64,000 bases of DNA from an uncultured Candidatus Rokubacteria bacterium (GCA_963826115.1 CAWGVS010000005.1:416001-480000), one strand, 5' to 3'; positions 1,109-60,409 are shown, counted from the first letter of the stretch. Notes: a model not told the origin generated them from the letters alone. Numbers and translations are program-made.

Positions 1109-1167
1109 CGGCCCGGCCGCGGCCGCCCGGATGGCAGCGAGCACGCGGGTAGCGTAGGCTGGCTCCC

Positions 1168-1806: not shown

Positions 1807-2619
1807 ATGGAGATCGATCTCAAGGGCAAGGTCGCAGTCGTCACCGGCGCCGGCCGCGGCATCGGGCGCGAGATCGCGGAATCCCTCGCGCGCGAGGGAG
1901 CGACCACGGTGGTCACCGACGTTCGCCAGGAGCTCCTCGATGACGTGGCCGCGGAGTGGAGGCGGCGGGGCTGGGCCGGCCGCCAGCACCTCTGCGACGT
2001 CCGGGACGGCGCCCGGACGCGGGCGGTGGCCGACGAGGTCGTGCGGGCGCTCGGCCGGATCGACGTCCTCGTGAACAACGCGGGCGTGGCGCCGGGTGGC
2101 CCCGTGGAGACGCTCAGCGAGGAGGCCTGGGACCTCAACATGGACGTGAACCTGAAGGGCACGTTCCTCATGTGCCAGGCCGTGATCCCCGCCATGAAGC
2201 GCCAGCGCGCGGGGCGGATCATCAACGCCGCGTCCTTCGCGGCGATCCTCCCCATCACCGGGTCGTCGGCATACGCCGCGTCGAAGGCGGGCGTGCACTA
2301 CTTCACGCGCGTCCTGGCGGGCGAGCTCGGCCCCTGGGGGATCACCGTGAATTGCTACGCCCCCGGCATGATCCCGACGGAGATCAACCACTTCACGGAG
2401 CAGCCCGCCGAGCGCCAGCGCCGTCTCCTCGACACGCTCACGTTCCGGCGCTGGGGCGAGGCGCGGGACGTCGCGAACCTGATCTGCTTCCTGGCCTCGG
2501 ACCTGGCCGGGTACATCACGGGGACCATGGTCGACGTGAGCGGCGGGAAGCTCGCGACCCAGATTCCGCGGCTCGCGTGGGAGGCGGCGGCCCAGGAGGG
2601 CGTGGTCACCCTCGACTGA
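1807..2619 (+). CDS. short-chain dehydrogenase/reductase (FabG-like)
   Basis: TGAGRGIG, NNAG and YAASK motifs. Confidence 0.92.
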   Translation: MEIDLKGKVAVVTGAGRGIGREIAESLAREGATTVVTDVRQELLDDVAAEWRRRGWAGRQHLCDVRDGARTRAVADEVVRALGRIDVLVNNAGVAPGGPVETLSEEAWDLNMDVNLKGTFLMCQAVIPAMKRQRAGRIINAASFAAILPITGSSAYAASKAGVHYFTRVLAGELGPWGITVNCYAPGMIPTEINHFTEQPAERQRRLLDTLTFRRWGEARDVANLICFLASDLAGYITGTMVDVSGGKLATQIPRLAWEAAAQEGVVTLD

Positions 2620-2654
2620 CGCGTTCGCCCGGGCGGACGTGCTATAGGGAGAGC

Positions 2655-3998
2655 GTGGATGACCGGGACCTCCTCGACGAGCTGGTGCGGGTCGCAACCC
2701 GCCTCGGCGCGGAGGTCCGGATCGAGCCCTTCGAGACGTCGCCCGCGCGCGGCGGCGGCCGCTGCCTCGTCGAGGGGCGCGAGCTCATCCTCCTCGACGC
2801 GCGCGCGCCGCTCAGGGACCGGGTCGGCGCGCTCGCGGCGGCGCTCGCCGGCTTCGACCTCGACGACGTCTACGTGACCCCGGAGGCCCGGGAACGAGTG
2901 GAGCGGGAGCGCGACGTCCGCATCGCGCCACGGGAGGGCGTGGCGCTCGCCCCGCTCTGCACCATGGGTGTCGGCGGGCCGGCGCGCTGGTACGTCGAGG
3001 CGCGGGACGAGGCGGGCGTGCTCGCGGCCCTCGACTGGGCGGAGCAGCGCGGGCTCCCGGTCCGCGTCATCGGCGGCGGCTCGAACCTGGTCGTCGCCGA
3101 CACGGGCGTGGACGGGCTCGTCCTCCGCGTCGCCCTCCTCGGCATCACGACGAAGGAGACGGGGGACGCCGTCGAGCTCACCGCCGCGGCCGGCGAGCCG
3201 TGGGACGACGTCGTGCGGCTCGCGGTCGAGCGCGGGTGGGCCGGCCTCGAGTGCCTGAGCGGGATTCCGGGGCTGGTCGGCGCGACGCCCATCCAGAACG
3301 TCGGCGCCTATGGCCAGGAGGTCGCGGACACCGTCTCGGCGGTGCGCGTGCTGGACCGTGCCACGCGCGCGGTGCTCTCGCTCCCGCCCGCGGCGTGCGG
3401 CTTCGGCTACCGCGACAGCGCGTTCAAGAGCCACGCGCCCGACCGCCACGTGATCCTCGGGGTCACGTACCGCCTGCGCTCGGGCGGCGCGCCCTCGATC
3501 CGCTACGCGGAGCTCGAGCGCCACCTCGCCGCGCGCGGGATCGCGACGCCGACGCTCGGGGACGTGCGGGCGAGCGTGCTCGCCGTGCGCCGCGCGAAGT
3601 CGATGGTCCTCGATCCCGGCGACCCGAACGGGCGGAGCTGCGGCTCGTTCTTCGTGAACCCGGTGGTCTCGGTGGCGGAAGCCGAGCGCATCGCCGCCGT
3701 GGCGGGCGATCCGGCGATGCCGCGGTGGCCCGAGCCGGGCGGCGAGCGCGTGAAGCTGGCGGCCGCGTGGCTCGTCGAGCGCGCCGGGTTCGCGCGCGGC
3801 CACCGCGACGGCGCCGCCGGGATCTCGACGCGCCACACGCTGGCGATCGTGGCGCACGAGGGGGCGCGGGCGGCCGACGTGGTTCGCGTCGCCCGGCGCG
3901 TCCAGACGAGCGTGCTGACCCGCTTCGGCGTGCGGCTGCACCCGGAGCCGGTCTTCTGGGGCTTCGCCAGCGTGACGGACGGTCTCCCCGAGGCGTGA
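2655..3998 (+). CDS. murB: UDP-N-acetylenolpyruvoylglucosamine reductase with extra ~85-aa N-terminal domain
   Basis: GGGSNL, GIPGLVGATPIQNVGAYG, FGYRDSAFK, SCGSFFVNP and LHPEP; GTG at 2655 follows a TATAGG box. Confidence 0.9.
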   Translation: MDDRDLLDELVRVATRLGAEVRIEPFETSPARGGGRCLVEGRELILLDARAPLRDRVGALAAALAGFDLDDVYVTPEARERVERERDVRIAPREGVALAPLCTMGVGGPARWYVEARDEAGVLAALDWAEQRGLPVRVIGGGSNLVVADTGVDGLVLRVALLGITTKETGDAVELTAAAGEPWDDVVRLAVERGWAGLECLSGIPGLVGATPIQNVGAYGQEVADTVSAVRVLDRATRAVLSLPPAACGFGYRDSAFKSHAPDRHVILGVTYRLRSGGAPSIRYAELERHLAARGIATPTLGDVRASVLAVRRAKSMVLDPGDPNGRSCGSFFVNPVVSVAEAERIAAVAGDPAMPRWPEPGGERVKLAAAWLVERAGFARGHRDGAAGISTRHTLAIVAHEGARAADVVRVARRVQTSVLTRFGVRLHPEPVFWGFASVTDGLPEA

Positions 3999-4049
3999 CA
4001 CGGCTCCCGCGGTTTGCGGGTGCCCGCCCGGTCCCGTATCGTACCCACC

Positions 4050-5066
4050 GTGCCGCGGCTCCGCGTCGGCCTCGCCTACGATCTCTTCGGCAGCTACCCC
4101 TTGCGTCCGGGCGCCCCGCCCGATGCCGAGGTCGAGTACGAGCCGGAGGCGACGGTGCTCGTCCTGGAGACGGCGCTCAGGCGTCTCGGCCACGAGCCCG
4201 TCCGGCTCGGGAACCCCCACGCCGTTCTTCAAGCGGTCGCGCAGGCGGGTACGCTCCGCGTCGACGCGGTTCTGACCATCGCCGAGGGGTACGGCCCGCG
4301 GAACCGCGAAGCGTGGGTGCCGGCCCTCTGCGAGATGGCCGGGATCCCGGCGCTCGGCTCCGACGGCCTCACCCTGACGACGACGCTCGACAAGCTCTGG
4401 GCGCATCGCGTGGTTGCCGCGGCCGGCGTGGCCGTACCCGCGCACGCGAGCCTCGATTCGGCCGAGGCGGCGGCGCGCGCCGCGTTGCCGGCCCCGTTCC
4501 CGCTCTTCGTCAAGCCGCGGTGGGAGGGGACCGCCAAGGGAATCGGCCCCACCTCGCGCGTCGAGAGCCGTGACGCCCTCGTGCGCGAGGTCGCCCGGGT
4601 CGTCGAGACGTACGCGCAGCCGGCCCTGGTCGAGGCGTTCCTGGAGGGCCCGGAGTACACCGTCACGCTGGTGGGCGATCGGCCGCCCCGGGCCCTGCCG
4701 ACGCTCCAGCGCGCGCTGGAGGTCACGACCGGGATCGGCGCCCACGCCCTCGAGCGGCACCCGCCGCCGCCCGGCGGCTGGCGCCACGTGACGCCGGGCG
4801 CGCTCGACCCCGCGCTCGAGACCGAGCTGGTGGCGCTGGGCCGGCGCGCGTTCGAGGCGCTCGAGTGCCGGGACTACGCGCGGGCGGACTTCCGCCTCGA
4901 CGGCGCCGGCCGGCCCCACTTCCTCGAGATCAACCCGCTGCCCACGTTCGCGCCCGACGGCTCGTTCGGCATCATCGCGGAGATCCTGGGGCGCGACCTC
5001 GACGACCTCCTGGCGGAGATCCTCGGGGAAGCGCTCGCCCGCCTCGACCGCGCGCCGCGCGCCTGA
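4050..5066 (+). CDS. D-alanine--D-alanine ligase-like ATP-grasp protein
   Basis: VKPRWEGTAKGI, VEAFLEGPEYTV, RDYARADFRLD and FLEINPLP; GTG start 7 nt after TATCGT. Confidence 0.85.
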   Translation: MPRLRVGLAYDLFGSYPLRPGAPPDAEVEYEPEATVLVLETALRRLGHEPVRLGNPHAVLQAVAQAGTLRVDAVLTIAEGYGPRNREAWVPALCEMAGIPALGSDGLTLTTTLDKLWAHRVVAAAGVAVPAHASLDSAEAAARAALPAPFPLFVKPRWEGTAKGIGPTSRVESRDALVREVARVVETYAQPALVEAFLEGPEYTVTLVGDRPPRALPTLQRALEVTTGIGAHALERHPPPPGGWRHVTPGALDPALETELVALGRRAFEALECRDYARADFRLDGAGRPHFLEINPLPTFAPDGSFGIIAEILGRDLDDLLAEILGEALARLDRAPRA

Positions 5067-5171
5067 CGTGCATCCCGTGAGCCCCATGGACCCGCCGCTC
5101 CGGCGGCGGTCGGCCGTCGAACCCGAGGAGCCGGTCCGTCTCCCGGACGGACGCGGCGCACGGAGGACCCG

Positions 5172-5561
5172 ATGAGCGAGCAAGCGTACCAGGACGGACT
5201 CGAGATGAAGCGCCGGCTGTTCGGCGCCGGCAAGGAGCGCCCGGTCTCCCACGGGAGCCTGGCCGACGACCTCCTGCGGCTCTCCGACGAGACCGTGTTC
5301 GGCCGCGTCTACACGCGGCCGGGCCTGGACCTCAAGACCCGGAGCATGCTGACCGTCGCGGCGCTCACCGTGCTGGGCCGCGACGACTACCTCCGGCGCC
5401 ACCTCCAGGGCGCGCTCCACGTCGGTGTCACGCCCGCCGAGATCAAGGAGATCCTGATGCAGATGGCCTTCTACGGCGGGATGCCCGTCGCGCTGAAGGC
5501 CCTCCGGATCGCCCAGGAGGAGATCACCGCCTGGGAGGCGGCCCGCGGCGCGGCGCGCTGA
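5172..5561 (+). CDS. carboxymuconolactone decarboxylase family protein
   Basis: FGRVYTRPGLDLKTRSMLTVAAL...EIKEILMQMAFYGGMP; GGAGG RBS. Confidence 0.88.
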   Translation: MSEQAYQDGLEMKRRLFGAGKERPVSHGSLADDLLRLSDETVFGRVYTRPGLDLKTRSMLTVAALTVLGRDDYLRRHLQGALHVGVTPAEIKEILMQMAFYGGMPVALKALRIAQEEITAWEAARGAAR

Positions 5562-5573
5562 GCGATCCGGCGG

Positions 5574-6779
5574 CTAGCGCCGCCGCGCGCGCCACGCGGC
5601 GAGGGCGAGGAGTGCGCCCGCGCCGGCGGCCGCGGCCGTCAGGACGCCGAGGCTGCCGAATCCCCAGCGCGCGACGAGCCAGCCGCCGAGCGCCGCCGCG
5701 CTGAGCCACCCGATGCTCGACATCGTGATGTTGAGGCCCAGGACGGCGCCGCGCACGTCTCCCGGCACCTCGGAGAGCGCCGCCATGAGCGCCGGGCGCC
5801 CCGCCGCGTTCGCGAACGAGTACGCGAAGCCGAGCGCGACGGACAGGACGATCCCGGGACGCCAGAGCATGAGCGGCAGCCCGAGCGCCCCGGTCACGAC
5901 CGAGGCGGCGGCGAACACGAGCGGGCGCGGCAGGGGCCGGTCCGCGAGCGCGCCGCCCAGGAGATTGCCCGCCAGGTTTCCGAGCGCGGCCAGCGCGAGC
6001 GCGAGCGCCAGCGCCTCCATCGTCACCCCGTACGCCGTCAGGAAGAAGGTCGCCAGGTACACCGCCACCGCCGCGAAGCAGGTGCGCTCCATCGTGCTCG
6101 CGAGGAGGAGCCCGACGATCCGCGGGCCGAAGAGGCCGCGGAGACTTGCCCGCGCCCGCCCGGCCGGGCCCCGCGCGCCGGCGCCGCCTGGGACCACGAG
6201 CCAGACGGCGGCCGCGCCGACGATCGCGGTGGTGGCCTGCGCGCCGATCGCGACGCGCCAGCCCCCGATGGCGCCGAGGAGGGTCACGAGCGGGACGGCG
6301 GCCACGAGGGACAGGGACTGGCCAGTGATGACCCAGCCGAGGGCGCGGCCGTGCTGGGCCACGGCCACGCGATCCGACACCGCCGCGAACACGGTCCCCA
6401 TGAAGCCGCCGCCGCCGGCGCCCGCGAGGAGCTGCCACAGGGCGGCCGTGCCGTAGCCGTGGGAGAGGGCGAGGCCGAGCCGGGCCGCGCCCAGCGTGAG
6501 GACGGCGGCGACGAGCACGGGCCGGCGGCCGATCCGGTCCGAGGCGGCGCCCGCCGTGACCGACACGACGCCCCAGCTGATGCTCATGAGCGCGATGAGG
6601 TTCGCCGCCGCTCCGAGAGTGACGTCGAGGTCCCGCGAGACGTCGAGGAGGAACGGCGCGAGCGCGATCGCCGAGCCGTTCACGAGGAAGGTCACGACCG
6701 AGAGCGTGACGAGCATGACCCACGGGAGCCGGGCCTCGGCCCCCGGTGCGCGGCCCTCCGGCGCACGCGAGTCGTTCAC
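5574..6779 (-). CDS. MFS transporter
   Basis: About 12 hydrophobic segments and GAASDRIGRRP motif A; start uncertain. Confidence 0.88.
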   Translation of the reverse strand: MNDSRAPEGRAPGAEARLPWVMLVTLSVVTFLVNGSAIALAPFLLDVSRDLDVTLGAAANLIALMSISWGVVSVTAGAASDRIGRRPVLVAAVLTLGAARLGLALSHGYGTAALWQLLAGAGGGGFMGTVFAAVSDRVAVAQHGRALGWVITGQSLSLVAAVPLVTLLGAIGGWRVAIGAQATTAIVGAAAVWLVVPGGAGARGPAGRARASLRGLFGPRIVGLLLASTMERTCFAAVAVYLATFFLTAYGVTMEALALALALAALGNLAGNLLGGALADRPLPRPLVFAAASVVTGALGLPLMLWRPGIVLSVALGFAYSFANAAGRPALMAALSEVPGDVRGAVLGLNITMSSIGWLSAAALGGWLVARWGFGSLGVLTAAAAGAGALLALAAWRARRR

Positions 6780-48692: not shown

Positions 48693-49172
48693 TTATCGCG
48701 GCCGCTCTTTCGTCAGCCGATCTTCGGCCTCGCCGATGTAGGCGGCGATCGTATTGCCGGTCTCATGAATATCGCGCCGCAGGGCGGCTTCGGCCTGTCC
48801 CACGCGCTCGACGACCCGCTGGGCCGCCTCGGCGGGCGCCGCCTTCAGCTGGGTCAGCTCGTCGTCCAGATGCTTGCGCAGCTCGGTGAAGCGCGACGCC
48901 TCGGCGTCATCGGCCAACTTGCGCTGCGCGAGCAGCTCCCGGCCGGACCGCCTCGCTTCGACGAGGGCGGCCGTCTCGAGCCCGAGTACGAACAGCAGAT
49001 AGAGCACCGTGAGGACCGCCGTGGCGGTGAGGAGGATCAGGCCCGGGGGGGCCTCGACGCGGGTCACCAGCAGATGCAGCGGCGCCGGGGCGGCAAGCGT
49101 TTCCCAGTTCAGCGCGGCGAAGGTGCCGAGCACCGTGAGCACGATTACGACCAGAAGAATCTGTGCGCGCAT
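48693..49172 (-). CDS. LapA-like 2-TM membrane protein with coiled-coil tail
   Basis: FAALNW...L.L...EAP.GL and ADDAEASRF; AAGGAGG RBS. Confidence 0.7.
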   Translation of the reverse strand: MRAQILLVVIVLTVLGTFAALNWETLAAPAPLHLLVTRVEAPPGLILLTATAVLTVLYLLFVLGLETAALVEARRSGRELLAQRKLADDAEASRFTELRKHLDDELTQLKAAPAEAAQRVVERVGQAEAALRRDIHETGNTIAAYIGEAEDRLTKERPR

Positions 49173-49521
49173 CGGGCACCTCCTTGGCGGTCGTGACCCG
49201 GGCGGTCGCGGCCTGGGCGGCGACGGGGTGGCACGCCGGTCTCGGTCGAGGCCGCCGGTGAGTGGTCATCACTGGAGCCCCCGGACCGGATCAGGCTCCG
49301 TGGAACGACCGCCGACGGAGGCGCGCCGACTCGTCGACCACAGCCGGCGTCACCGAGGTGTGCCGACGTCCCAGCCCGCATACAGGAGGGTACACCACAT
49401 CGGACGGCGCCGGGCGTCGCGTCAGCGCCCGGGCCCAGGGAGCGATCTCCGGTCGTGGATGGGCTATAGTCGAACCCGGCGCACGAGCCGGGCGCGGAGC
49501 CCGATCGCACAGGAGGGTTGC

Positions 49522-50289
49522 ATGTCGAGCGTGACCAGCGGGGGAGCGGGCCGGAGGGGCGAGTCGATGGAGTGGCAGCTGCGCGTCGATCTGGCTGCGG
49601 CGTTCCGGCTGTCGGCCGACCTCGGCTGGCACGAGGCGGTGGCGAACCACTTCAGCCTGGCGGTGACGTCGGACGGGAAGAAGTTCCTGATGAACCCGAG
49701 GTGGCGGCACTTCGCCCGCGTCAAGGCGAGCGAGCTCCTCCTGCTCGACTCCGACGACAAGGAGACGATGAGCCGCCCCGACGCGCCGGACGCGTCTGCC
49801 TGGTGCATCCACGGGCACCTTCACGGCGCCTTGCCCCAGGCGCGCTGCATCCTCCACTGCCACCCGCCCTACGCGACGGCCATCGCGTCGCTCGCCGATC
49901 CCGAGCTCAAGCCGATCGAGCAGAACACCGCCCGCTACTACCGGCGCTACGCGATCGACCGGGAGTTCGGCGGCATTGCCGACAACGACGAGGAGGGGCG
50001 GCGCCTGGTGCGGGTGATTGGCGACAAGAAGCACGTGATCATGGGGAACCACGGGGTCCTGGTCATGGCGGACACCGTCGCGGAGGCCTTCGACAACCTG
50101 TACTACCTCGAGCGGGCCTGCCAGACGCTGGTCCTCGCCTACTCCACGGGCCAGAAGCTGAAGGTTCTCTCGCACGAGATCGCCGAGGCGACCGCGCGCG
50201 GCTGGGAGGAGTACAAGGACGCGGCGTTCGCCCACTTCGATCAGCTGAAGGCGATCCTCGACGCCAAGGACCCCTCGTACAAGGACTGA
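49522..50289 (+). CDS. class II aldolase/adducin family protein
   Basis: RVDLAAAFR, NHFS, IH, HCH, NHGV and YYLERAC. Confidence 0.92.
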   Translation: MSSVTSGGAGRRGESMEWQLRVDLAAAFRLSADLGWHEAVANHFSLAVTSDGKKFLMNPRWRHFARVKASELLLLDSDDKETMSRPDAPDASAWCIHGHLHGALPQARCILHCHPPYATAIASLADPELKPIEQNTARYYRRYAIDREFGGIADNDEEGRRLVRVIGDKKHVIMGNHGVLVMADTVAEAFDNLYYLERACQTLVLAYSTGQKLKVLSHEIAEATARGWEEYKDAAFAHFDQLKAILDAKDPSYKD

Positions 50290-50330
50290 CCGGATCGGCG
50301 GCCGGCGCCGCCGTCAGCGAGCGAGCGGCG

Positions 50331-51224
50331 CTAGCTCCAGCTGAGGAGCCGGCAGAGGTCGCTCGTGAGATCGGTCAGCTGGAAGCAGCCCCGGCGCCCG
50401 CCGAGCCGCGACCGGACGTCGCCCGCCCAGTCGGCGCCGAGCTTGACGCCGATCAAGTCCCGGACTCGCTCCTGCGGCTCGTTGCAGATGCCGAGATAGG
50501 GCAGGCGGGGAGTCAGGACCCGGGCCGCCCGGATCTCGTGGCTCGCCTGGTCCACGTCGTACCAGAGCTCGAACCCGTGGACCTGGTCGAACATCGACTG
50601 GTAGAGGGAGAGCGCCCCTCCCGCGCGGGCCACGTGGCTCCGCTTGTAGCGGTGGAACACGAACGGCCGGCCCGGAGGCGACGCGTACATCTCCACGGTG
50701 GCCGGGGTGCGGACGTGCCGCTCCTGGAAGAGCGCCCGCGTCTCCTCGCGGTAGGTGAAGCAGAGGTCGATGAGCTCGGGCCAGGCCTCGAGGTCGAGCT
50801 GATGGAACTCCGCCGGACCGAGCTCCCGTGAGCCCGGGAGGGCCATCCGCGTCACCTGCCGGGACAGCCGGGCCGCCTCGAGAGCGGTGTCGAGCAGGTG
50901 GCCGGCGAGCGGGTGCTCGCCGAGCGCCGCCGCCACCTGGCGCCGGAAGCCGGCGGCGATGCGGAGGGTGCCGATTGCCCGGAAGGCATCGAGGAGCTCG
51001 CCGCAGCGCGCCCGCGTCTCCGGTGAGCGCGCGGTCGCCGTCGCCTCGGACAGCTGATAGCTCGGCGACGGCTCCGCGACCAGGCTGACCTCCAGGTCCG
51101 CGATCCCGTCAGTCAGCCGGGCGTTCAGCCGCAGGAGCGAGCGGTCGAGGGTGTCGACCCACCCCGTGACGATCCGCTCGTAGGGGCCGCGTCCCCCGGC
51201 GAGGAAGCGACAGTCGACCGTCAC
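50331..51224 (-). CDS. tandem DUF2889-like protein
   Basis: Two similar halves; second has FHR...DQVHG...PY.GIC...LIG...LGG.RGCFQLTDL; start uncertain. Confidence 0.65.
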   Translation of the reverse strand: MTVDCRFLAGGRGPYERIVTGWVDTLDRSLLRLNARLTDGIADLEVSLVAEPSPSYQLSEATATARSPETRARCGELLDAFRAIGTLRIAAGFRRQVAAALGEHPLAGHLLDTALEAARLSRQVTRMALPGSRELGPAEFHQLDLEAWPELIDLCFTYREETRALFQERHVRTPATVEMYASPPGRPFVFHRYKRSHVARAGGALSLYQSMFDQVHGFELWYDVDQASHEIRAARVLTPRLPYLGICNEPQERVRDLIGVKLGADWAGDVRSRLGGRRGCFQLTDLTSDLCRLLSWS

Positions 51225-51225
51225 C

Positions 51226-52659
51226 TCAGCGACCCGTGACCATCCCGTCGACGTGCTTGGCCGCGCGGCCGAGATCGTACTCGCGGTACATCTGGAGCCA
51301 CTCGGCCGCGGGGGACCCGGAGCCGTGGATGATCTCCACGTCCCACCATCCCGCGTACTCCGAGGCGGTGAGGTCCCGGATGAACCGGAAGAGGCGCATG
51401 CGGTCCTCGGCGGTGCCGGTCGCCCCCGCGTAGTACTTGTCGAAGTAAGGCTTGAGCTCCGGGGCCCGCTGGTCCTCGATCGCCGGCAGCGTCTCGACCG
51501 CGCCGCCCGCGATCTCGAGCAGGAGCCGTGTCGCCAGGTAGTGCCCCTCCATGGCGACGTGCTTTCCCGTGTTCGCGTAGACTGCGTCGGGCACCGCGAC
51601 ACCGGGCTCCAGGATGGTCGCGTGCATCGAGGCGGCCACGCCCGTGCTCCAGATGAGCGCCTGGAGCTTGATGAGCTGGGTGATCTTGTCGCGGATGTGC
51701 GGCGCGTCGGCCACGCCGTTGAGCTCGGCGATGCGGTGCGCCGCGCCGATGAAGATGTCGAGCTTCCCGACGTCGGCTCCGAGGTAGCCCTGCCGGTTGA
51801 CGCTCGCGAAGATGTTGGCCATGTCGCCGGAATGCTGCCACTCGCCGCACAGGAACACCCGCTCCCAGGGGACGAACACGTCCTCGAAGATCGTGAACGT
51901 CTCGAGCAGCTGGTCCTTCCGCGTCATGGGCGACGTCTCGGGGTCCTTGATGTTGGCCTCGCGCGCGATCAGCTTCACGCCGGGAGCGTCGACCGGGACG
52001 GCGCAGGACACCGCGTAGTCGGCGTCCTCCCGCCGCATCGCCCGGGTCGGGGCGACGATCAGCTCCTCGGCGGCCACCGCGCCGGACGTGTGCATCTTGC
52101 AGCCCCGGATGACGATGCCGTCGGCGCGGCGCTCGACGACCCGGAGGTAGGCTTCCTTGTTCGGCTGCTCGGCCGGTCTGAGACGGCGGTCCCCCTTGGG
52201 ATCCGTGATGGCCGCCGAGGTCATGATCTGATCCCGCTGGAACCGTCGGATGTAGCTCCGCACGCGCTCCAGGTACTCGCCCTTCCCTTCGCGTGCGAGC
52301 GTGGAGGCGACGACGTAGAGCGCGGCCAGCTCGTCCCGCCCGATCGTCGCGTACCCCGCGGCGGGGGAGACGCGCGAGACCTGCCGGGCGACCATGATGT
52401 TGTCGAGGAGGTCGTCCTTCGTCGCGGGGATCGACCAGAAGGGATGGCAGGGCGCCCCGTCGATCGACACGATGCGCGGCAGCGCCCGCTGGACCTCCGG
52501 ATCGCGCACGCAGTCGTAGATCCACGTGCCCCAGCAGTGCCGGGTGGGCGCGAAGCCCTCGTGACTCACGCGGTCCGCGATGCGCTCGCCCCCGCAGTAC
52601 ACGACGGGCCGCTGCTCCCGGAGGGCGGCAAGATAGGCTGCGCTGGTCCTGAACGCCAT
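51226..52659 (-). CDS. 4-hydroxyphenylacetate 3-hydroxylase / 4-hydroxybutyryl-CoA dehydratase family flavoprotein
   Basis: AITDPKGDR, GIVIRGCKMHTSG, FEDVFVPWERVF and HGSGSP. Confidence 0.88.
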   Translation of the reverse strand: MAFRTSAAYLAALREQRPVVYCGGERIADRVSHEGFAPTRHCWGTWIYDCVRDPEVQRALPRIVSIDGAPCHPFWSIPATKDDLLDNIMVARQVSRVSPAAGYATIGRDELAALYVVASTLAREGKGEYLERVRSYIRRFQRDQIMTSAAITDPKGDRRLRPAEQPNKEAYLRVVERRADGIVIRGCKMHTSGAVAAEELIVAPTRAMRREDADYAVSCAVPVDAPGVKLIAREANIKDPETSPMTRKDQLLETFTIFEDVFVPWERVFLCGEWQHSGDMANIFASVNRQGYLGADVGKLDIFIGAAHRIAELNGVADAPHIRDKITQLIKLQALIWSTGVAASMHATILEPGVAVPDAVYANTGKHVAMEGHYLATRLLLEIAGGAVETLPAIEDQRAPELKPYFDKYYAGATGTAEDRMRLFRFIRDLTASEYAGWWDVEIIHGSGSPAAEWLQMYREYDLGRAAKHVDGMVTGR

Positions 52660-52695
52660 GACGGTGGCCTCCTGGGCGGGTGCCGGCCGGGCACC

Positions 52696-54159
52696 TCAGC
52701 CTTCGTTCAACAGTCGCCGAACCTCGTCCCGCGAGACCTTGCCGTTCGCGTTTCGCGGCAGGGCGGTGAGGAACCGGACGGTGCGTGGCGATTTGTAGTC
52801 GGCGATGCGCTCGGCGAGGAAGCGTCCGAGGGCGCCCGCGTCCAGCGTGCTGCCGGCCTTCGCGACGACGGCGGCGGCCACGACCTCGCCCAGGTCCCGG
52901 TCGGGCAGGCCGACGACCGACGCCTCGAGGACGTCCGGATGGGCGGCGATCGCGGTCTCGACCTCGGCGGGCGGGATCTTCTCGCCCCCGCGGTTGATCA
53001 GCTCGTCCGCGCGCCCCACGAGGCGGAGGAGGCCGTCGGCGCCGAGGCGCGCCAGATCCCCGGTGCGAAGCCACGGACCGTCGAACTTCGCTCGGGTCGC
53101 CGCCTCGTCCTTCCAGTAGCCCGCCATCACCGTGGGGGTCCGGAGCTGGAGCTCGCCCCCGGCGGCGATCCGGTCGAGGACGCCCGGCACCGCGACGCCG
53201 ATCGCGGTCAAATCGCGGGCGCCTGGGCGCCAGGGGAGATAGTGCGTGATCGAGGTTGCCTCGGACATCCCGTACACGTTCACGAAGCGGACGTCGGGGA
53301 CGACCTCGGCCAGGCGCGCGGCGAGCGCGGCCGGCATCGGCGCGCCGCCGTAGGCGAACCACGGGGCCAGGGCGGCGGGCGGGGGCGCCGCCTCGAGCTG
53401 GGCCAGCATGCGGCCGTAGATGGTCGGCACCCCGATCAGGAACGTGTACCGTCCCTTGGCCAGGGCCGCGGCCACCGCTCCCGGATCGAAGCGGCGCGGG
53501 ACGTCGACCTGCCCGTTCACGAGCAGCATGTGGGCGAGGCCGTCGTTGTAGCCCGTGTTGTGGAAGAGCGGGCACACCACCGCCGTCGCGCTGTCGGGTC
53601 CCGACTGGAAGAGGTGCGCGAACATCTCCGCGTTCCGGACGAGCGAGGCGTTCCGGATCATCACGCCGCGCGGCTCGCCGGTCGTGCCCGAGGTGTAACA
53701 GAGGACGCCGACCTCGTCCGGTCGCGCCTCGGAGCCGTCCAGCGCCGGCGCCGGGGTCCCGGGCGTTCCGATCTCGGCCGACGGGATCGCGCGGCGTCGG
53801 TAGCGCTCGGACGCGCGGGCGAGGTACGAGGGGTCGCCGACGAGCGCGGCGGGATCGAGGTCGCCGAGAACCCGGTCGAGGTCGCCCGCGGCCTGCCGCG
53901 TGTTCAGAGGCGCCGCCACGGCGCCGTGGGCGATGGCGCCGAGGTATGCGACGACCCAGTCGCCGCCGTTGTCGCCGAGGATGGCCACCCGGTCGCCTCG
54001 CTCGACGCCGAGGCGCCGGAGTCGCGCGCGGAACCGTGCGACGAGCCGGGCGACCTCGCCGTAGCCCAGCGTCCGCCCGCGGTCGGGCTCGGCGACGAAG
54101 ACCGCATCGGGGGTGCGCTCCGCCCAGTGGTGGAGAAAGTCCGGCAGGGTGTCAGCCAT
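52696..54159 (-). CDS. AMP-forming acyl-CoA synthetase
   Basis: YTSGTTGEPRG, YGMSE, RTGD, GR...I.RGGEK and PRNANGK. Confidence 0.92.
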   Translation of the reverse strand: MADTLPDFLHHWAERTPDAVFVAEPDRGRTLGYGEVARLVARFRARLRRLGVERGDRVAILGDNGGDWVVAYLGAIAHGAVAAPLNTRQAAGDLDRVLGDLDPAALVGDPSYLARASERYRRRAIPSAEIGTPGTPAPALDGSEARPDEVGVLCYTSGTTGEPRGVMIRNASLVRNAEMFAHLFQSGPDSATAVVCPLFHNTGYNDGLAHMLLVNGQVDVPRRFDPGAVAAALAKGRYTFLIGVPTIYGRMLAQLEAAPPPAALAPWFAYGGAPMPAALAARLAEVVPDVRFVNVYGMSEATSITHYLPWRPGARDLTAIGVAVPGVLDRIAAGGELQLRTPTVMAGYWKDEAATRAKFDGPWLRTGDLARLGADGLLRLVGRADELINRGGEKIPPAEVETAIAAHPDVLEASVVGLPDRDLGEVVAAAVVAKAGSTLDAGALGRFLAERIADYKSPRTVRFLTALPRNANGKVSRDEVRRLLNEG

Positions 54160-54220: not shown

Positions 54221-54349
54221 TCAGCCGGCGTCGGCCGGCGGGCACTCCGGGAGCTCGACGGTGAAGACGCTGCCGGCGCCTTCGGCGCTCTCGACGGCGA
54301 TCCGCCCGCCGCGGTCCTCGACGATGCTCTTCGCGATGGCGAGGCCGAG
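54221..54349 (-). pseudogene. C-terminal remnant of a histidine kinase HATPase_c domain
   Basis: LGLAIAKSIVEDRGGRIAVESAEGAGSVFTVELP with no upstream kinase sequence or start. Confidence 0.75.
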
Positions 54350-54420
54350 GAGCGCGGACACGGCCGGCAACGTTCGGCGGCGCCCTCGCGCGCGGGCGGC
54401 ACCAAGCGGGCGGAGCGGAG

Positions 54421-55620
54421 CTACGCCGGGCGGGCGCCCCGAACCGGGCAGTCCGGCGGCATGACGGCCTTCTTCCGCGCGACGATCCCGCCGGCGTGCG
54501 CCCCGAGGTAGTGCGCGATCGTCTCGACCCGGATCTTCATCGACCCCGCCGGCTTGGTAGCGTCGAGGTCCTGGAACGAGAAGAAGAGCGTGCCGGACCG
54601 CTCCACGATCTGCTGGACGGGCGTGTAGGTCGGCTGGTCCATCCCGCACTCGTAGCTCGAGAGCCGGACGACGCACGAGATCCAGGGCACGCGCGCGGCG
54701 AACTTTGCTCCCCACAGGATCTCGTTCGTGTTCGCGCTGTAGGACGACGGCCACACGTCGCGGATGTCGAGGGGCGACTTGACGTGGCCCGACCTGACGT
54801 CGGGGCCGAATGCCCAGTCGAGCAGGTCGGCGTCGAGCGGCAGGTACTGACCCCAGAGGATCGGGTAGCCGTAGGCCTGGATGTCGACCTCGATCTCGTG
54901 GCCGATTCCCGGGTCCATGTGATACGGGCGGGCGAGGACCAGGATGGCGGAGCGGTCCTTCTTCGCGCACCACTCGAGCACCTCGCGCGAGCGCCGGCGG
55001 AGCCCGTCGGAGAAGGTCTGGAGCGCTCGGTAGCCTTCGGCGACCGCCGCGGCCGTCTCGACGGGCGTGAGCCCGGGCAAGACGTCGCGCAGCCCCTCGT
55101 AGAGCTGCTTCGGCACGAGCTTCGGCTCGTCGAGCGACACGAACGGCGCGACGTAGCGGATGCCCTGGTCCGCGAAGGCGTCCCGCTCCTTGAGGAAGCC
55201 GGCCTTGATGTTCTCGGGGGCCGCCATGACGCGCGGGCAGGTCAGGCTCCGGGCGACGTGCCCGCTCAGGAACGACGGGAGGTTGTAGATCATCGGCGAG
55301 AAGACCACGTGGAGCTTCTCGCGGTGCCCGAAGACGAGCTCGCCATAGTGGCCGGAGATGCACTTCACCGGGTAGCAGCAGTCCACGGTCCCGCGGCCCT
55401 TGCCGAACTCCCGGCCCTGCTCCTCGGAGGTGTCCGACGAGAAGACGAGGTGGCGCGGGTCGACGCCCAGGGCGGTGAAGAGCCCGTGCCAGAACTGGTG
55501 CGTCGACCAGAGGTTCAGGACGCGCGGGATGCCGATCCGGAGCTCAGCGCGCGACGGGCGCGGAGCGGGCGCGGCGGAAGGCGTCTTTGCGAACCATCTC
55601 GGCAACGTTAGGGTACTCAC
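54421..55620 (-). CDS. DUF2229 / 2-hydroxyacyl-CoA dehydratase-like subunit (PlsA C-terminal-like)
   Basis: IGIPRVL, DCCYPVK...GH, TCP, ARPYH.DP.I.H and SYECGMD. Confidence 0.82.
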   Translation of the reverse strand: MSTLTLPRWFAKTPSAAPAPRPSRAELRIGIPRVLNLWSTHQFWHGLFTALGVDPRHLVFSSDTSEEQGREFGKGRGTVDCCYPVKCISGHYGELVFGHREKLHVVFSPMIYNLPSFLSGHVARSLTCPRVMAAPENIKAGFLKERDAFADQGIRYVAPFVSLDEPKLVPKQLYEGLRDVLPGLTPVETAAAVAEGYRALQTFSDGLRRRSREVLEWCAKKDRSAILVLARPYHMDPGIGHEIEVDIQAYGYPILWGQYLPLDADLLDWAFGPDVRSGHVKSPLDIRDVWPSSYSANTNEILWGAKFAARVPWISCVVRLSSYECGMDQPTYTPVQQIVERSGTLFFSFQDLDATKPAGSMKIRVETIAHYLGAHAGGIVARKKAVMPPDCPVRGARPA

Positions 55621-57718
55621 GCTTGACCTCCTCGAGCTTCGCCTTCACCGTCCGCATCTCGTTCGCGTCCTCGACGAGGCCCTTCGGGCAGGAGTTCCCG
55701 CTGATGACCCGCTCCCAGCCCGCGGCGAGCGGCACCTTGCTCCACGAGCGCCCGGCCGCGCCCGGCAGCTGCACGTCGATGAAGGTGCGGGTGCAGTTGA
55801 CCGGGCACCACTTGCAGACGGTCTCCGCCTTCGTGGTGCTGACGTAGGTCAGGGACTCGATGACGTCGAAGCCTCGGAAGCGGGACGGCTGGCCGGCGCC
55901 CCGCCAGTCGCCCGCGCAGAGCGCGGCGCCGATCGCGCCGGCCTCGCCGGAGTACGGGTGGAGCACCACGTCGGCGTCGGGCACCTTGCTCGTGATGAAG
56001 TCGGTCTGCGCCTTGACCACCGCCATGTTGCGGTGGGTGCCGCCCTGGAGGACGAACTTCCGGCCGGCCGCCCGGAGGTTCTGGAGCTGGCCGGCGTAGA
56101 TCCAGACGTTCACCGGCAGGACGGCCGCGAGCGCCGCCATGATCTCCTCGGCCGCCCAACCCTTCCGCTGCTGGTTCACGATGTCGGACTGCAGGAAGAC
56201 GCCGCATCCCATCGCGAGGGACGGCATGGCCTTCGCCGTGAACGCGCGCTCGGCGTAACCCTCGAGAGGGATCCCGTAGCGCTCGGCGACCCCCTGGAGG
56301 AACGCCCCGTTTCCGGACGAGCACTGGGAGTTCAGCCGGAAGTCGGCGACCGTGCCCTGCCGGAGGAGCATGATCTTGACGTCCGTCCCGCCGACGTCGC
56401 AGATCACGTCGGCGTCGGGGACGTAGTGGAGCGCCGCCGTCGCGTGGGCCACCGTCTCCACGATGGCCACGTCGGCCCCGAGGACGTCGCGGAGCAGGTC
56501 CTTGCCGTAGCCGGTGAGCGCCAGGGCGCCCACCTCGCTGAAGCCCGCCGCCCGCACCTGGCGGAACAGCGACTGCGCGTCCTCGATCGGGTTGCCCTTC
56601 GAGATCGCGTAGCAGCTGAAGAGGAGCTCCTTGTCGAGCGAGAGCACGACCGCCTTGGCGGTGGTGCTGCCGAAGTCGCAGCCGAGGAGGACGGGCGCGG
56701 CGGCGGCGGCCGGCGTCGGGCGCGCGAGGGCCGCGGGGCGGCCGGCGTACCGGGAGACGAAGCTGGCGAGCTCGTCGCCGCCGGCGACGAGCGCCCGCGC
56801 GCCGTCCTTGGCCTTCTGCTCCTGCTGGCCCTCGGTGACCCACCACGTCAGGCGCTCGCGGCCCCGGTACACGCCGACGCCGGGCGCCTCGCCCCGGGCG
56901 GTCTCGACGCAGCCGAGGCAGGCGTAGTAGAGGGCGTCCTCGGGCACCAGGATGAGTGACGCGGGGTCCGCATCGCCGGCGTCCGTCAGGCCGCGCTCCT
57001 TCCAGAGCTTCGCGAGATGGTGGCGCCACGCCTCCTGGAGCCCCTTGAAGAAGAGGTTGGGCCCGCCCAGGAGGAGGACAGTGGGCATGGGCGTGTTGCC
57101 CTTGGTCAGGGTCGCGAGGTTCTGGTAGACCACGGCCTCGAAGAGGCTGGCGATGATCTCCTCGACCGGCACGCCGGTCTTCACGAGCGTGTTCGCGTCC
57201 GTCTCGGCGAAGATGCCGCACTTCGAGCTGATCTTGTGGAGGCTCAACCCCGCGTACGGCATCGCGGCCAGCCGCTCGGCCGGCACCTGGAGCTTCCGCG
57301 CGGTCTTCTCGATGAACGTCCCGGTGCCGCCGCTGCAGGCCGACTGCATGTAGACCTGCTTCGACTTCCCGGTGCCGGCCTCCTTGAAGAAGATGGTCTT
57401 CATGTCCTCGCCGCCGATCTCGGACACGAAGCGCACCTCGGGGTGGAGCCGCTCGACGCACGCGGCGACGGCAACGACCTCCTGGACGTACTTGCCGCCT
57501 ATCAGGGCCGTGATGGCGCCCGCCCCCGAGCCGGTGATGAAGGCCTGATCCACCTCGGGCGTGAGGCCGGCCTCGGACTCCATGCGCTCGAGGAACTCGA
57601 GCACCTTCTCGGCCTGGCGGGTGTTGTGGCGCTGGTAGTCCCGCCAGAGGACCCGGTCACCGTCGACCAGCACCGCCTTGACGGTGGTCGAGCCGACGTC
57701 GACGCCCGCGATCCTCAC
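55544..57718 (-). CDS. double BadF/BadG/BcrA/BcrD ASKHA ATPase activase (PlsA/Ger N-terminal-like)
   Basis: Two repeats (DVGSTTVK..EIGGED..CSGGTG..CGIFA; DFGSTTAK..DVGGTD..CSSGNG..CGVF) plus CKWCPVNC...GNSC. Confidence 0.9.
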   Translation of the reverse strand: MRIAGVDVGSTTVKAVLVDGDRVLWRDYQRHNTRQAEKVLEFLERMESEAGLTPEVDQAFITGSGAGAITALIGGKYVQEVVAVAACVERLHPEVRFVSEIGGEDMKTIFFKEAGTGKSKQVYMQSACSGGTGTFIEKTARKLQVPAERLAAMPYAGLSLHKISSKCGIFAETDANTLVKTGVPVEEIIASLFEAVVYQNLATLTKGNTPMPTVLLLGGPNLFFKGLQEAWRHHLAKLWKERGLTDAGDADPASLILVPEDALYYACLGCVETARGEAPGVGVYRGRERLTWWVTEGQQEQKAKDGARALVAGGDELASFVSRYAGRPAALARPTPAAAAAPVLLGCDFGSTTAKAVVLSLDKELLFSCYAISKGNPIEDAQSLFRQVRAAGFSEVGALALTGYGKDLLRDVLGADVAIVETVAHATAALHYVPDADVICDVGGTDVKIMLLRQGTVADFRLNSQCSSGNGAFLQGVAERYGIPLEGYAERAFTAKAMPSLAMGCGVFLQSDIVNQQRKGWAAEEIMAALAAVLPVNVWIYAGQLQNLRAAGRKFVLQGGTHRNMAVVKAQTDFITSKVPDADVVLHPYSGEAGAIGAALCAGDWRGAGQPSRFRGFDVIESLTYVSTTKAETVCKWCPVNCTRTFIDVQLPGAAGRSWSKVPLAAGWERVISGNSCPKGLVEDANEMRTVKAKLEEVKREYPNVAEMVRKDAFRRARSAPVAR

Positions 57719-59307
57719 GACGCCCCCGCGGGCGCGGCGGCGGGCCGCGCGCCGGGCGCCGGTCGGGCGGCGGCGAGCTTCGCCAGCCGGTCGCCGCGGC
57801 CCATCAGCTTGGCGACGTGGAGGACCAGGTTGGCGGCGGTGCCGGCGGCGAGGCCCGTGCGCGGGATCGGGTAGGTGGCCATGCGCATGGCCGGCCGGGC
57901 GTCCACGTAGGCCCGGACCTCCTCCAGGGCGAGGCCCGTCGCGTCCAGCACGGTGTCGAGCTCCCGCTGGGCGCGCTTCTTCGCCTCGGTCAGGATCATC
58001 TGGCAACGCGACAGCGCGTGGACCTCGGCGTCGCCCTTGATCTCGAGCGGGGCATAGAGGAGGTCCGGGTACTTGCCGACGACGCCGGCCATCGCGCCGA
58101 TGCTCATCGTGTTGGGCATGCAGGAGTACGGCGAGAGCTCGCAGATCATGTGGGCCTTCTTCTTGTGGTAGGCCCACAGCGCCTTCCCGACCAGCATGTC
58201 GCCCTCGCCGCCGTCGAGGCGGCTGTGGAAGTAGGGGGCGGCGAGCCGGCGGAGCTCCAGCTGGTTCGGGAGCTCGTGGGGGAGGCTCCCCATGGCGCGC
58301 CGCAGCCGGTCGAACGTCCACCGATACACCGCCTGGGCGGCCCGCCCGGCGGCCAGCTTGAGCCGCGCGCCGCGCTCGATGCCGCTGTAGTCCTCGAAGC
58401 GCTGGAGCCCGAGCCGGAGGAGGTAATCCATCCACACCGTCACCGCCGCCGGGTAGACCTCGGCGCCCTCGGCCTCGAGCCAGCGGTGGATGTTGTAGTT
58501 CGGGTCGCCCTCGACGGTCTGGAGGTAGAACTCGCCGGTGATCTTCACCTTCGGCTTCACCCGGAGCCTGTCCACCTCGATCGTGGCGAAGCGCCGGTGG
58601 ACCTCGCGGAGCGCGCGGGCGAAGTAAGGGGTGCCGAGATGCCAGGCGATCGAGCGCCACGAGTCATTGCGCGGACGATTCTTGAAGACCTCGAAGAGGT
58701 GGTCCATGCACTCGCGCACGATGGCGTCGGTGCGACCGGCCTCCACCTCGTACGGCCGGATCTGGTACTCGAGGTCCTGCACGAGATCGGCGCAGAAGAT
58801 GGCCCAGAGGCAGCCGAAGGTGATCGGGAGGTTGAAGTCGAGGCCGTCGCCCATCACCGCCTTCTGGTCCATCTGATCCTGGGCCAGGAGGAACATCCGG
58901 AATGCCTCGAGCCCGGTGTTCCGGAGCGCGAGCTCGTAGCTCTGGTGGTACTGGCCGAAGCGGCAGGCCCCGCAGGAGCCGGCGGTGAGGTACACGTAGC
59001 GCTTGCTCACCTCGTCGGCGCCGATGGCCTTCGACTCCTTCTTGAGGAAGTTGACGAGGTTCCCGGTGGTGAAGCTCGTCGGGCAGCACTGGCCGATGTC
59101 CGCCACCTCGCGCCCGGTGAGAAGGTCCGCCTTGGTCGCGACCGGCAGGATGCGCGCCTGGTAGCCGCTGTTCTCCAGGACCGCCTGGAGCAGGCGCTCG
59201 AGGCGCCAGTGGAGGCCGCCGAACAGCACCGTCGTGGACTCGCGCTGGGCGCGGGTGAAGGGGCGCGGCGCGTAGGTGCGATAGGGCTCAGCGGTGACCG
59301 TCGCCAT
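57715..59307 (-). CDS. HGD-D-like reductase/dehydratase subunit (PlsR-like)
   Basis: CCPTSFTTG, GSCGACRFGQY, ITGEFY, GGEG and PYSCMPN. Confidence 0.8.
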   Translation of the reverse strand: MATVTAEPYRTYAPRPFTRAQRESTTVLFGGLHWRLERLLQAVLENSGYQARILPVATKADLLTGREVADIGQCCPTSFTTGNLVNFLKKESKAIGADEVSKRYVYLTAGSCGACRFGQYHQSYELALRNTGLEAFRMFLLAQDQMDQKAVMGDGLDFNLPITFGCLWAIFCADLVQDLEYQIRPYEVEAGRTDAIVRECMDHLFEVFKNRPRNDSWRSIAWHLGTPYFARALREVHRRFATIEVDRLRVKPKVKITGEFYLQTVEGDPNYNIHRWLEAEGAEVYPAAVTVWMDYLLRLGLQRFEDYSGIERGARLKLAAGRAAQAVYRWTFDRLRRAMGSLPHELPNQLELRRLAAPYFHSRLDGGEGDMLVGKALWAYHKKKAHMICELSPYSCMPNTMSIGAMAGVVGKYPDLLYAPLEIKGDAEVHALSRCQMILTEAKKRAQRELDTVLDATGLALEEVRAYVDARPAMRMATYPIPRTGLAAGTAANLVLHVAKLMGRGDRLAKLAAARPAPGARPAAAPAGAS

Positions 59308-60139
59308 TCCGTCCTCCTTCGACCTCGAGGCGCGCCGGCGCCGGCATCAGCGCCGGACCAGTGCGCCGGAACGAATCGACCCAGTGCTCCACCAGGCGCA
59401 CGGTGGCGAATCCCGGCAGGCGCCGGATGGTCTCGTCGACCTTGCGGGCGGCGTCGCGCCCGTCCTCGCCGCCGAAGAGGTAGCCGGCGATGAAGCGCAG
59501 CTCGTCCTTGCCCTGCTCGCCGCTGCCGACCGGCGCCCAGAAGCGGTCCACGATGGCGCGGCTGACCCGCGCGGCGCCGGGCCGCCGGAGCCGCTCCTCG
59601 GCCTGCCGATAGTAGAAGAAGAAGTGTCGGGACTCGTCGAGCATGATGCGCTCGAGCAGGTCCGACAGCACGGGATGCCCGGAGAGCTTGGCGAGCCGCC
59701 GGTACGCCGTGAGCGCCGTCAGCTCGTTGATCGCCCCCCAGGCCATGTGAAGCGCGCAGAAGTCCGGCCAGGCCCGCGAGAGCATGGCGACCGCGCCGGC
59801 CTCGAGGCGTTTCAGGAACGGCTCCTGCCCGCGCGGCCGCGACCGCTCGCCGAGCGGATGCCCGACGGCGTCCAGGAAGCGCGCCAGCGCGAGCCCGTGG
59901 AACGTCTCCTCGTAAACCCAGCAGGCGAGGAACGTCGCGACGTCGGGGTCATCGACCGCCCGGGTCGCGAGGAGCTCCCGGAGGTAGATGATGGTGTGGG
60001 CCTCGATGTCCTGCATGTAGCGCAGCGTCCGGATCGTTTCGGGGGAGATGGGATGCCGGGGGACGTCGGCCCACGGGAACGCAGCGAGGTCCACTGCACG
60101 GGAGCGCGCGACGTAGGCCTCCAGATCAACCGCGCCCAT
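59288..60139 (-). CDS. ferritin-like diiron-carboxylate protein (acyl-ACP desaturase-like)
   Basis: DIE...W.YEETFH...NE......Y...DESRH diiron ligand pattern. Confidence 0.8.
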   Translation of the reverse strand: MGAVDLEAYVARSRAVDLAAFPWADVPRHPISPETIRTLRYMQDIEAHTIIYLRELLATRAVDDPDVATFLACWVYEETFHGLALARFLDAVGHPLGERSRPRGQEPFLKRLEAGAVAMLSRAWPDFCALHMAWGAINELTALTAYRRLAKLSGHPVLSDLLERIMLDESRHFFFYYRQAEERLRRPGAARVSRAIVDRFWAPVGSGEQGKDELRFIAGYLFGGEDGRDAARKVDETIRRLPGFATVRLVEHWVDSFRRTGPALMPAPARLEVEGGRNGDGHR

Positions 60140-60409
60140 GGCCCGGCCAAAGCCTACAACGATCTGCCCGCGGGGGGCAAAGGGGTGCTCCGCCCATCTC
60201 ACCCCGCTCTACGCGCGTGGCCTGGCGGCCGGATGGCCGGGCAAGGCCTGCCGGCCGGGTCGCTCGCGGGGTCGTCGTCGCCGGCCCGCGCGCTCCCGCC
60301 GCCGGCTTGTGCCCGGCCCGGGCCTGGTTTACGCTCGGCCCACGTTGTCGAGCGATCTCCCGCCAAGAGACAGGGTGACAAACCCTCGCCGAACAAGGAG
60401 GTAGGACCC

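Follow-up and report, generated by a model that had tools for sequence, protein, structure and literature searches.

A split and permuted relative of the PlsA/PlsR and Ger reductases, with a diiron partner, as a candidate ester-to-ether lipid enzyme of Rokubacteria

Ether lipids of oxic soils, including the brGDGTs (branched glycerol dialkyl glycerol tetraethers), serve widely as climate proxies, and both their makers and the enzyme that forms the ether bond are unsettled. Does a four-gene locus of an uncultured Candidatus Rokubacteria bacterium encode such an enzyme? The window analysed here is a stretch of 64,000 nucleotides (C5:416001-480000) from a 6.24-Mb, 12-contig genome that is 99% complete, and an original prediction made from its sequence had proposed that the locus is a candidate ether-lipid operon led by a diiron enzyme. 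We find that the products of three of the genes, termed B, C and D, can be placed firmly, by domain set and homology, in the PlsA/PlsR-Ger enzyme class. We put at roughly 50% the probability that they form a split PlsAR/Ger-type ester-to-ether lipid reductase, that is, a circularly reordered (Red2-double activase-Red1/DUF2229) branch of the PlsA/PlsR-Ger enzymes within the radical-enzyme superfamily of benzoyl-CoA reductases (BCR) and 2-hydroxyacyl-CoA dehydratases (CoA, coenzyme A).

Region 54421-60202 of the window holds four translationally coupled genes on the minus strand in the order A-B-C-D. Gene A (59288-60139; ATG start, with an alternative GTG at 60202) encodes a 283-aa ferritin-like diiron protein that is distantly like soluble acyl-acyl carrier protein (ACP) desaturases, gene B (57715-59307; ATG start) a 530-aa cysteine-rich subunit, gene C (55544-57718; GTG start) a 724-aa ATP-dependent activase with two ASKHA (BcrAD_BadFG) domains and gene D (54421-55620; GTG start) a 399-aa DUF2229 subunit. 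The stop of A and the start of B overlap by 20 nt, and the Shine-Dalgarno sequence GAAGGAGG precedes the ATG of B; B and C overlap by 4 nt (GTGA), the end of C and the start of D by 77 nt, and the sequence GAGGAGG lies ahead of D as its Shine-Dalgarno site. Gene C ends a 1038-codon open reading frame (55544-58660) for which a sliding profile of G+C content at third codon positions (GC3) indicates coding only from about 57760 downward. Because of this frame switch, the start of C was set at the GTG at 57718, which is the sole start codon there. With GC3 values of 0.91-0.97 in the chosen frames, and with these overlaps and ribosome-binding sites, the predicted layout of four overlapping minus-strand genes is confirmed. 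Recurrence in about 100 loci also puts the arrangement well outside what chance would give.

Protein C contains two PF01869 (BcrAD_BadFG) domains (E 2.6e-68) and matches TIGR00241. Its cysteine pairs C128/C167 and C466/C505 are invariant in all 61 orthologues and match in position the residues that ligate the bridging cluster in HgdC. The C-terminal motif CxxCxxxC...GNxC (55688-55816, minus strand; C635, C638, C642 and C677) is conserved at 97-100% in the same 61 orthologues, with the first three residues invariant and C677 at 97%, and is probably an extra [4Fe-4S] site; it also occurs between the double activase (BB) and DUF2229 parts of two single-chain fusions (P0158 and P0164) and in one of three canonical fused paralogues. 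Protein D is a clear DUF2229 member (PF09989; E 3.3e-43, scoring 148 bits where 29.4 would suffice) with three cysteines, C82, C128 and C325, conserved in 55 of 55 orthologues, a predicted three-ligand site that would fit a cluster with an open iron. The double activase with its cysteine-rich tail and the DUF2229 subunit thus stand as they had been described.

Protein B had no match in Pfam, NCBIfam or the PDB sequences, and neither PF06050 (HGD-D) nor PF09989 matched any of 44 diverse members of its family, even at E<=10. The family is large, with more than 2300 homologues, the best 120 of which are 76-90% identical to B, and with 1609 matches at E<=1e-3 and 211 at E<=1e-30 in a 50%-cluster library; close homologues carry the source names Rokubacteria or Methylomirabilota. 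Weak matches within the phylum (22-27% identity; tblastn E 1e-10 to 1e-21) correspond to the C-terminal part of frames of 1400-1550 aa that run in the order double activase, DUF2229, B-like module, and that Pfam reads as BBD plus a small HGD-D piece. Alignment with hhalign of the B-family profile and the Red2 region of these canonical fused paralogues gave a probability of 100% (E 1.2e-45, 391 columns) with the cysteines aligned, and B was therefore identified as the Red2 module in the PlsR position, a homology that runs through the fused paralogues of the phylum and not through PlsR itself. Four cysteines of B (C74, C112, C115 and C396) are conserved in 67 of 67 orthologues and presumably ligate a [4Fe-4S] cluster. 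The earlier description of B as HGD-D-like thus holds as profile homology to Red2, but not as a match to any domain model or PDB sequence (PF06050, 0/44). Because this PlsR equivalent is invisible to Pfam, domain screens that report 'BB' or 'BBD' will under-call complete systems. Both module orders are found as single chains, B-BB-D in P0158 (1623 aa) and BB-D-B in P0164 (1579 aa). A further protein, P0169 (1271 aa), joins a B-type module to a GltD-like NAD(P)H oxidoreductase (Fer4_20/Pyr_redox_2) and two ferredoxin motifs, a fusion that may be a built-in electron supply for the enzyme class.

Conservation was surveyed in 201 genomes of Methylomirabilota/Rokubacteria, from which 20 loci were fetched, and more widely in one genome per species, giving 80 named loci, all from metagenome-assembled genomes (MAGs). 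Within the phylum, B was present in 82 of the 201 genomes, 64 of them at E below 1e-87 (including the unpublished G058); the other matches comprise, in G147, a fragment of B itself at a contig edge and otherwise weak matches, most of which, where sampled, were canonical paralogues. The B-C-D set was complete in 18 of the 20 fetched loci, and the other two are cut by contig ends. The lineages represented among the named loci are Methylomirabilota, many Acidobacteriota, Beta- and Alphaproteobacteria, Aquificaceae, Ignavibacteria, Zixibacteria, Dadabacteria and others. C directly follows B in 75/80 of these loci; contig ends interrupt three, and two have no C. B-C-D is a self-contained unit of a large family that is widespread in soil bacteria. 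Its flanking genes vary between loci, with no recurrent CoA-pathway genes among them, which fits an enzyme acting on bulk lipid. Some loci have upstream a TetR regulator (four) or a transporter of the major facilitator superfamily (MFS; five), and a few have an Lgt, accA or radical S-adenosylmethionine gene as a neighbour.

A tree of C, built with FastTree only from 87 proteins and rooted on four canonical paralogues, with long-branch joins flagged by the program, divides the split-type sequences into two clades. In clade I (57 rows), a Rokubacteria clade of 23 rows with support of 100 is joined by Proteobacteria, by Acidobacteriota and by three rows from Aquificales. The 26 rows of clade II include a second B-C-D group from Acidobacteriota and three genomes in which the split genes run C-D-B. 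These last three (L131 in G274, L132 in G262 and L033 in G134) carry the canonical order as three separate genes, 33-48% identical to the window proteins, although in L132 only C and D were matched and B was not found with the window query. Two Rokubacteria-type B-C-D loci of 75-76% identity (L041 and L043) lie in bins labelled Nitrosocosmicus, an archaeon, and Verrucomicrobiia, which looks like mis-binning rather than transfer.

The host carries four COX1 (heme-copper oxidase subunit I) genes and is therefore able to respire oxygen, so that its description as apparently aerobic is fair. In a profile search of its whole 6.24-Mb genome D was the sole DUF2229 locus, with positive controls in Thermotoga, Lactococcus, Bacteroides and Thermus genomes, and PF06050 had no match anywhere in the genome. 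CarF/PEDS1 (PF10520) likewise had no matches in the host, in a search in which the control genomes also gave none.

Gene A had been predicted to lead the system, and the surveys do not bear this out as a general feature. It was detected in 57 of the 201 phylum genomes, strongly in 48, and 46 of these 48 strong copies adjoin B on the same contig; the other two are in G199, at a contig edge, and in G070. A stands ahead of B in 14 of the 20 fetched phylum loci and in just 8 of the 80 named loci, all of Rokubacteria type, and is thus a Rokubacteria-clade-specific addition to B-C-D. Of the four-gene unit, therefore, the B-C-D part is conserved widely (18/20 and 75/80 loci), but A is confined to one clade. 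In three genomes (G025:C20:39486-39596, G191:C18:95291-95434 and G019:C2:14656-14844) an intact B has just upstream of it a short 3' remnant of A; A has therefore decayed in some Rokubacteria lineages that kept B-C-D. Six residues of A (E46, E78, H81, E139, E169 and H172) show no variation across the 25 homologues aligned and are probably the diiron ligands, as their pattern, E...ExxH...E...ExxH, is the full six-ligand pattern of soluble diiron desaturases. A resembles acyl-ACP desaturases and DesA2 in this four-helix diiron pattern and in weak matches, to PF03405 (FA_desaturase_2; E 1.6e-3, 17.8 bits, below the 22.7 cut-off and hence short of gathering-score membership, covering only model positions 99-211 of 325; 16.7 bits in a scan of its own genome) and, with an A-family profile against the PDB, marginally to DesA2 of Mycobacterium tuberculosis (1za0; E 2e-3). 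It differs from acyl-ACP desaturases in its sub-threshold score and in being shorter, at 283 aa against a model of 325 positions. Its neighbours in the Atlas are clusters of 'fatty acid desaturase domain' proteins, one of which has the Rubrerythrin family in 20% of its members. We know of no acyl-ACP-type desaturase that is coupled to a PlsA/Ger-type enzyme, and a literature search found no desaturase so coupled.

The link to ether lipids comes from what DUF2229 enzymes are known to do and from the company that the split form keeps. As described in PMC13159169 and PMC12838417, the characterised DUF2229 enzymes are PlsA/PlsR and Ger only, both of which make ether lipids, and on the same accounts the domain set at this locus is, as had been proposed, that of PlsA/PlsR and Ger. 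In Table S21 of PMC13159169, the entry for the ether-producing Aquifex pyrophilus gives a stand-alone 'BB' protein as Ger homologue, and that for Edaphobacter aggregans reads 'BBD'. The C protein of the window is 66% identical over its full length to a protein of Hydrogenobacter thermophilus TK-6, which according to PMC3111988 is aerobic and contains glycerol monoethers (GME), mainly GME-18:0. In an Aquificaceae MAG with a B-C-D unit (L081), C is 74-81% identical to orthologues source-named Hydrogenobacter thermophilus TK-6 and Thermocrinis albus, and 74% and 72% identical to those of Thermocrinis jamiesonii and Hydrogenivirga, respectively; two single-contig Aquificales genomes (G234 and G215) encode B-C-D at 52-64% identity. 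DUF2229 was detected in 28 of 81 Aquificales genomes, always in frames of 380-484 aa and so in the split form, and no fused Ger-type gene was found in any of the 81 genomes searched. This co-occurrence of the split form with ether lipids, patchy as its presence is, is suggestive.

How does the unit compare with systems that are already described? PlsA/PlsR of Clostridium perfringens (CPE1194/1195) has the same modules, namely two BcrAD_BadFG domains, DUF2229 (Red1) and Red2, in PMC12838417 and in Fig. S13 of PMC10087280, and single-gene forms occur in Enterococcus, Lactococcus and Bifidobacterium. B-C-D resembles PlsA/PlsR in standing alone without pathway neighbours, and differs in being three polypeptides instead of one or two and in its permuted, Red2-first order. 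The double activase and D do not share a polypeptide followed by or fused to Red2, as in the canonical form; the genes run Red2-BB-D, and rare fusions exist in both orders. Unlike PlsR, B has no PF06050 match and has a fourth invariant cysteine, and it is likened to PlsR through the domain set and the fused paralogues rather than the PlsR sequence. The window system also differs in its aerobic host and diiron partner. Ger, represented in PMC13159169 by AGL49404.1 of Thermotoga maritima and SHJ90043 of Desulfatibacillum alkenivorans, with a BBD core conserved among alkyl-ether producers, is one chain of about 1400 aa (BBDHDDH), whereas the window system is split and permuted, and a long branch separates its C from the fused canonical paralogues found in the same phylum. 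Ger was active only under anoxic expression, and its homologues are reported in PMC13159169 as limited to anaerobes. A parallel among aerobic soil bacteria is Solibacter usitatus, whose Acid_0922/Acid_0921 pair comprises a BBD protein and a Red2 partner without a Pfam match, and for which Halamka 2022 proposed ester-to-ether conversion by PlsAR homologues on the way to brGDGTs (PMC10087280); the order of the pair, in garbled figure text of that source, is BBD then Red2 in two genes, compared with Red2, BB and D in three genes plus a diiron gene here.

Earlier publications thus already report PlsAR homologues from aerobic Acidobacteria and a 'BB' homologue from Aquifex, and what is new is the split, permuted variant. 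Our literature search found no paper on the Red2-first three-gene unit, on B as a hidden PlsR equivalent or on a diiron partner, and none linking glycerol ester reductase with Methylomirabilota or Rokubacteria; the word 'Rokubacteria' does not occur in the supplementary text of PMC13159169 that was searched, the full list of Ger homologues (Data S2) lying outside that search. The original description of the arrangement as unrecognised therefore stands as regards the literature searched, but not as regards rarity, since the family is large. The relatives acting on CoA thioesters (HgdAB with HgdC, HadBC with HadI, and BcrABCD) share with the window system an ATP-driven ASKHA activator, a bridging [4Fe-4S] cluster and partner clusters ligated by cysteine. 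In contrast to the 2-hydroxyacyl-CoA dehydratases, which carry HGD-D on both subunits, neither B nor D has PF06050; C differs from HgdC-type activators in its tandem double domain and extra cysteine motif; and, unlike HgdAB, HadBC and FldBC, B-C-D has no conserved context of CoA-transferase, ligase or dehydrogenase genes. Against the BCR equivalog models for BcrA, BcrD and BzdQ, C scored 115.5 for TIGR02261 (cut-off 312.85), 90.5 for TIGR02259 (578) and 94.4 for TIGR03192 (380.2). The comparison with HgdABC and BcrABCD domain models that had been called for, with scores of 90-115 bits against cut-offs of 312-578 and no PF06050, thus sets the window proteins apart.

If B-C-D is an ester-to-ether lipid reductase, its substrate would most likely be the sn-1 acyl ester of a membrane glycerolipid, giving a 1-O-alkyl or 1-O-alk-1'-enyl ether. 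Reduced ferredoxin or flavodoxin would load a [4Fe-4S] cluster that the two ASKHA domains of C hold between them (C128/C167 and C466/C505), and ATP hydrolysis would push the electron to a very low potential. From there the electron could pass by way of the C-terminal four-cysteine site of C to the four-cysteine cluster of B and on to the three-cysteine cluster of D, whose open iron would be the site of substrate reduction. In Rokubacteria A has been added, and its probable role is either an O2-using step on the same lipid chain or a shield for the system against O2.

Several observations weigh against assigning B-C-D to ether-lipid synthesis. All 83 split-type C rows lie across a long branch from the four canonical fused paralogues in the FastTree phylogeny, and the split family is only 22-31% identical to those paralogues, so that the substrate of the split clade could differ. 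The ether-lipid link in Aquificales is anecdotal, given that DUF2229 occurs in only 28/81 genomes, and Thermus, a control genome positive for DUF2229, is to our knowledge not an ether-lipid producer. B and D showed no significant homology to each other (E 0.03-0.18), with a short aligned stretch superposing their conserved Cys-Cys-x-Pro motifs within an overall non-significant match, and neither found relatives in the PDB in single-sequence or profile searches. One genome (G070) keeps A without B-C-D. Finally, a 2026 paper states that Ger and PlsA are indistinguishable by sequence (PMC13274423).

A lesser but real possibility is that B-C-D belongs to the same class of ATP-driven DUF2229-type radical reductases/dehydratases and acts on something other than a glycerolipid, for example a different ester, a compound that is aromatic or unsaturated, or, as in the double-cubane cluster proteins, a small molecule. 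The long branch and low identity to the PlsA/Ger-like paralogues would be expected of such an enzyme; at least one genome (G119) has both split and canonical types, suggesting non-redundancy; the oxidoreductase fusion in P0169 speaks for reductive chemistry in general and not for lipids in particular; and upstream TetR (four loci) and MFS (five loci) genes are usual for catabolic or detoxifying functions. Yet no catabolic partner gene recurs in about 100 loci, the desaturase-like partner A of Rokubacteria points to lipid, and aerobic Aquificales that make ether lipids have the split form with no fused form among those searched. A CoA-thioester catabolic pathway, in which B-C-D would be a 2-hydroxyacyl-CoA dehydratase or aryl-CoA reductase working with an AMP-binding CoA ligase (52696-54159, minus strand; PF00501, E 3e-61) and an HpaB-family flavin monooxygenase or 4-hydroxybutyryl-CoA-dehydratase-like protein (51226-52659, minus strand; PF11794/PF03241), is very improbable. 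It was initially favoured, as both genes lie on the same strand just downstream of D and C matches BCR/HAD activator models, and was dropped on the synteny survey of 20 + 80 loci, in none of which an orthologous ligase or HpaB gene follows D. A 260-bp gap with a histidine-kinase remnant separates D from the ligase, PF06050 is absent from the genome and C falls far short of the BCR equivalog cut-offs.

A separate alternative concerns A alone, which could be a rubrerythrin-like scavenger of oxygen or peroxide that guards the O2-labile clusters of B-C-D, or could have a function of its own and merely share the operon. We consider this unlikely, though the distribution of A lends it some weight: A is missing from B-C-D of other phyla (72/80 named loci), has decayed to 3' remnants in G025, G191 and G019, persists without B-C-D in G070, and has the Rubrerythrin family within one of its Atlas neighbour clusters (20% of members). 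Against it, all six desaturase-type diiron ligands are invariant, the nearest families are FA_desaturase_2 and DesA2, and 46 of the 48 strong copies are translationally coupled to B. In G070 (L128, G070:C51) the retained A gene (5765-6580, minus strand; 75% identity) indicates either that B-C-D was lost or that A has an independent role.

The reading of B-C-D as an ester-to-ether lipid reductase can be extended to a larger but improbable proposal, in which Red2-BB-DUF2229 is an oxygen-compatible split Ger, the enzyme missing so far for ether-bond formation in aerobic and micro-aerobic bacteria, and A is a soluble O2-dependent desaturase that converts 1-O-alkyl to 1-O-alk-1'-enyl lipids. If so, the unit would be the ether former of Aquificales, soil Rokubacteria and many Acidobacteriota and Proteobacteria, A would be a soluble analogue of the membrane-bound PEDS1/CarF in a hybrid plasmalogen route of anaerobic and aerobic type, and further candidate sources of soil ether lipids, including brGDGT precursors, would come into view. 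What emerges from the analysis is a large and coherent clade of the PlsA/Ger enzyme class, split and permuted, that occurs in soil phyla capable of aerobic life and also in aerobic Aquificales producing alkyl glycerol ethers. The association with a diiron protein is previously unreported and might link O2 chemistry to an O2-sensitive radical enzyme.

Downstream of D, the region 49009-54159 of the window is a separate gene group that is not kept beside B-C-D elsewhere; besides the CoA ligase and HpaB-family gene it includes a DUF2889 gene (50331-51200, minus strand) and, on the strand opposite to A-D, a gene for a class II aldolase-domain protein (49009-50289, plus strand). None of the 100 loci (20 phylum and 80 named) has the ligase, HpaB-family or DUF2889 gene of the window; the only ligases there are unrelated ones of 27-32% identity, at varying places. 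At the other end of the unit, a TetR gene (TetR_N + TetR_C_24) lies directly 5' of B in four loci (L056, L067, L080 and L084) labelled Acidiferrales, Krumholzibacteriia, Blastocatellia and Aquificaceae, and its product is a candidate ligand-sensing regulator of the unit. The gap between D and the CoA ligase (54221-54420) contains, at 54233-54349 on the minus strand, the last ~39 codons of a histidine kinase (HATPase_c C-terminus). This remnant shares 59% identity with the end of a dCache-HAMP-6xGAF kinase of 1666 aa whose gene lies directly 3' of A in G070 (740-5740, minus strand) and 3' of D in G114 (L027). The locus was thus probably once A-B-C-D-kinase, with the kinase gene later deleted almost wholly in the window.

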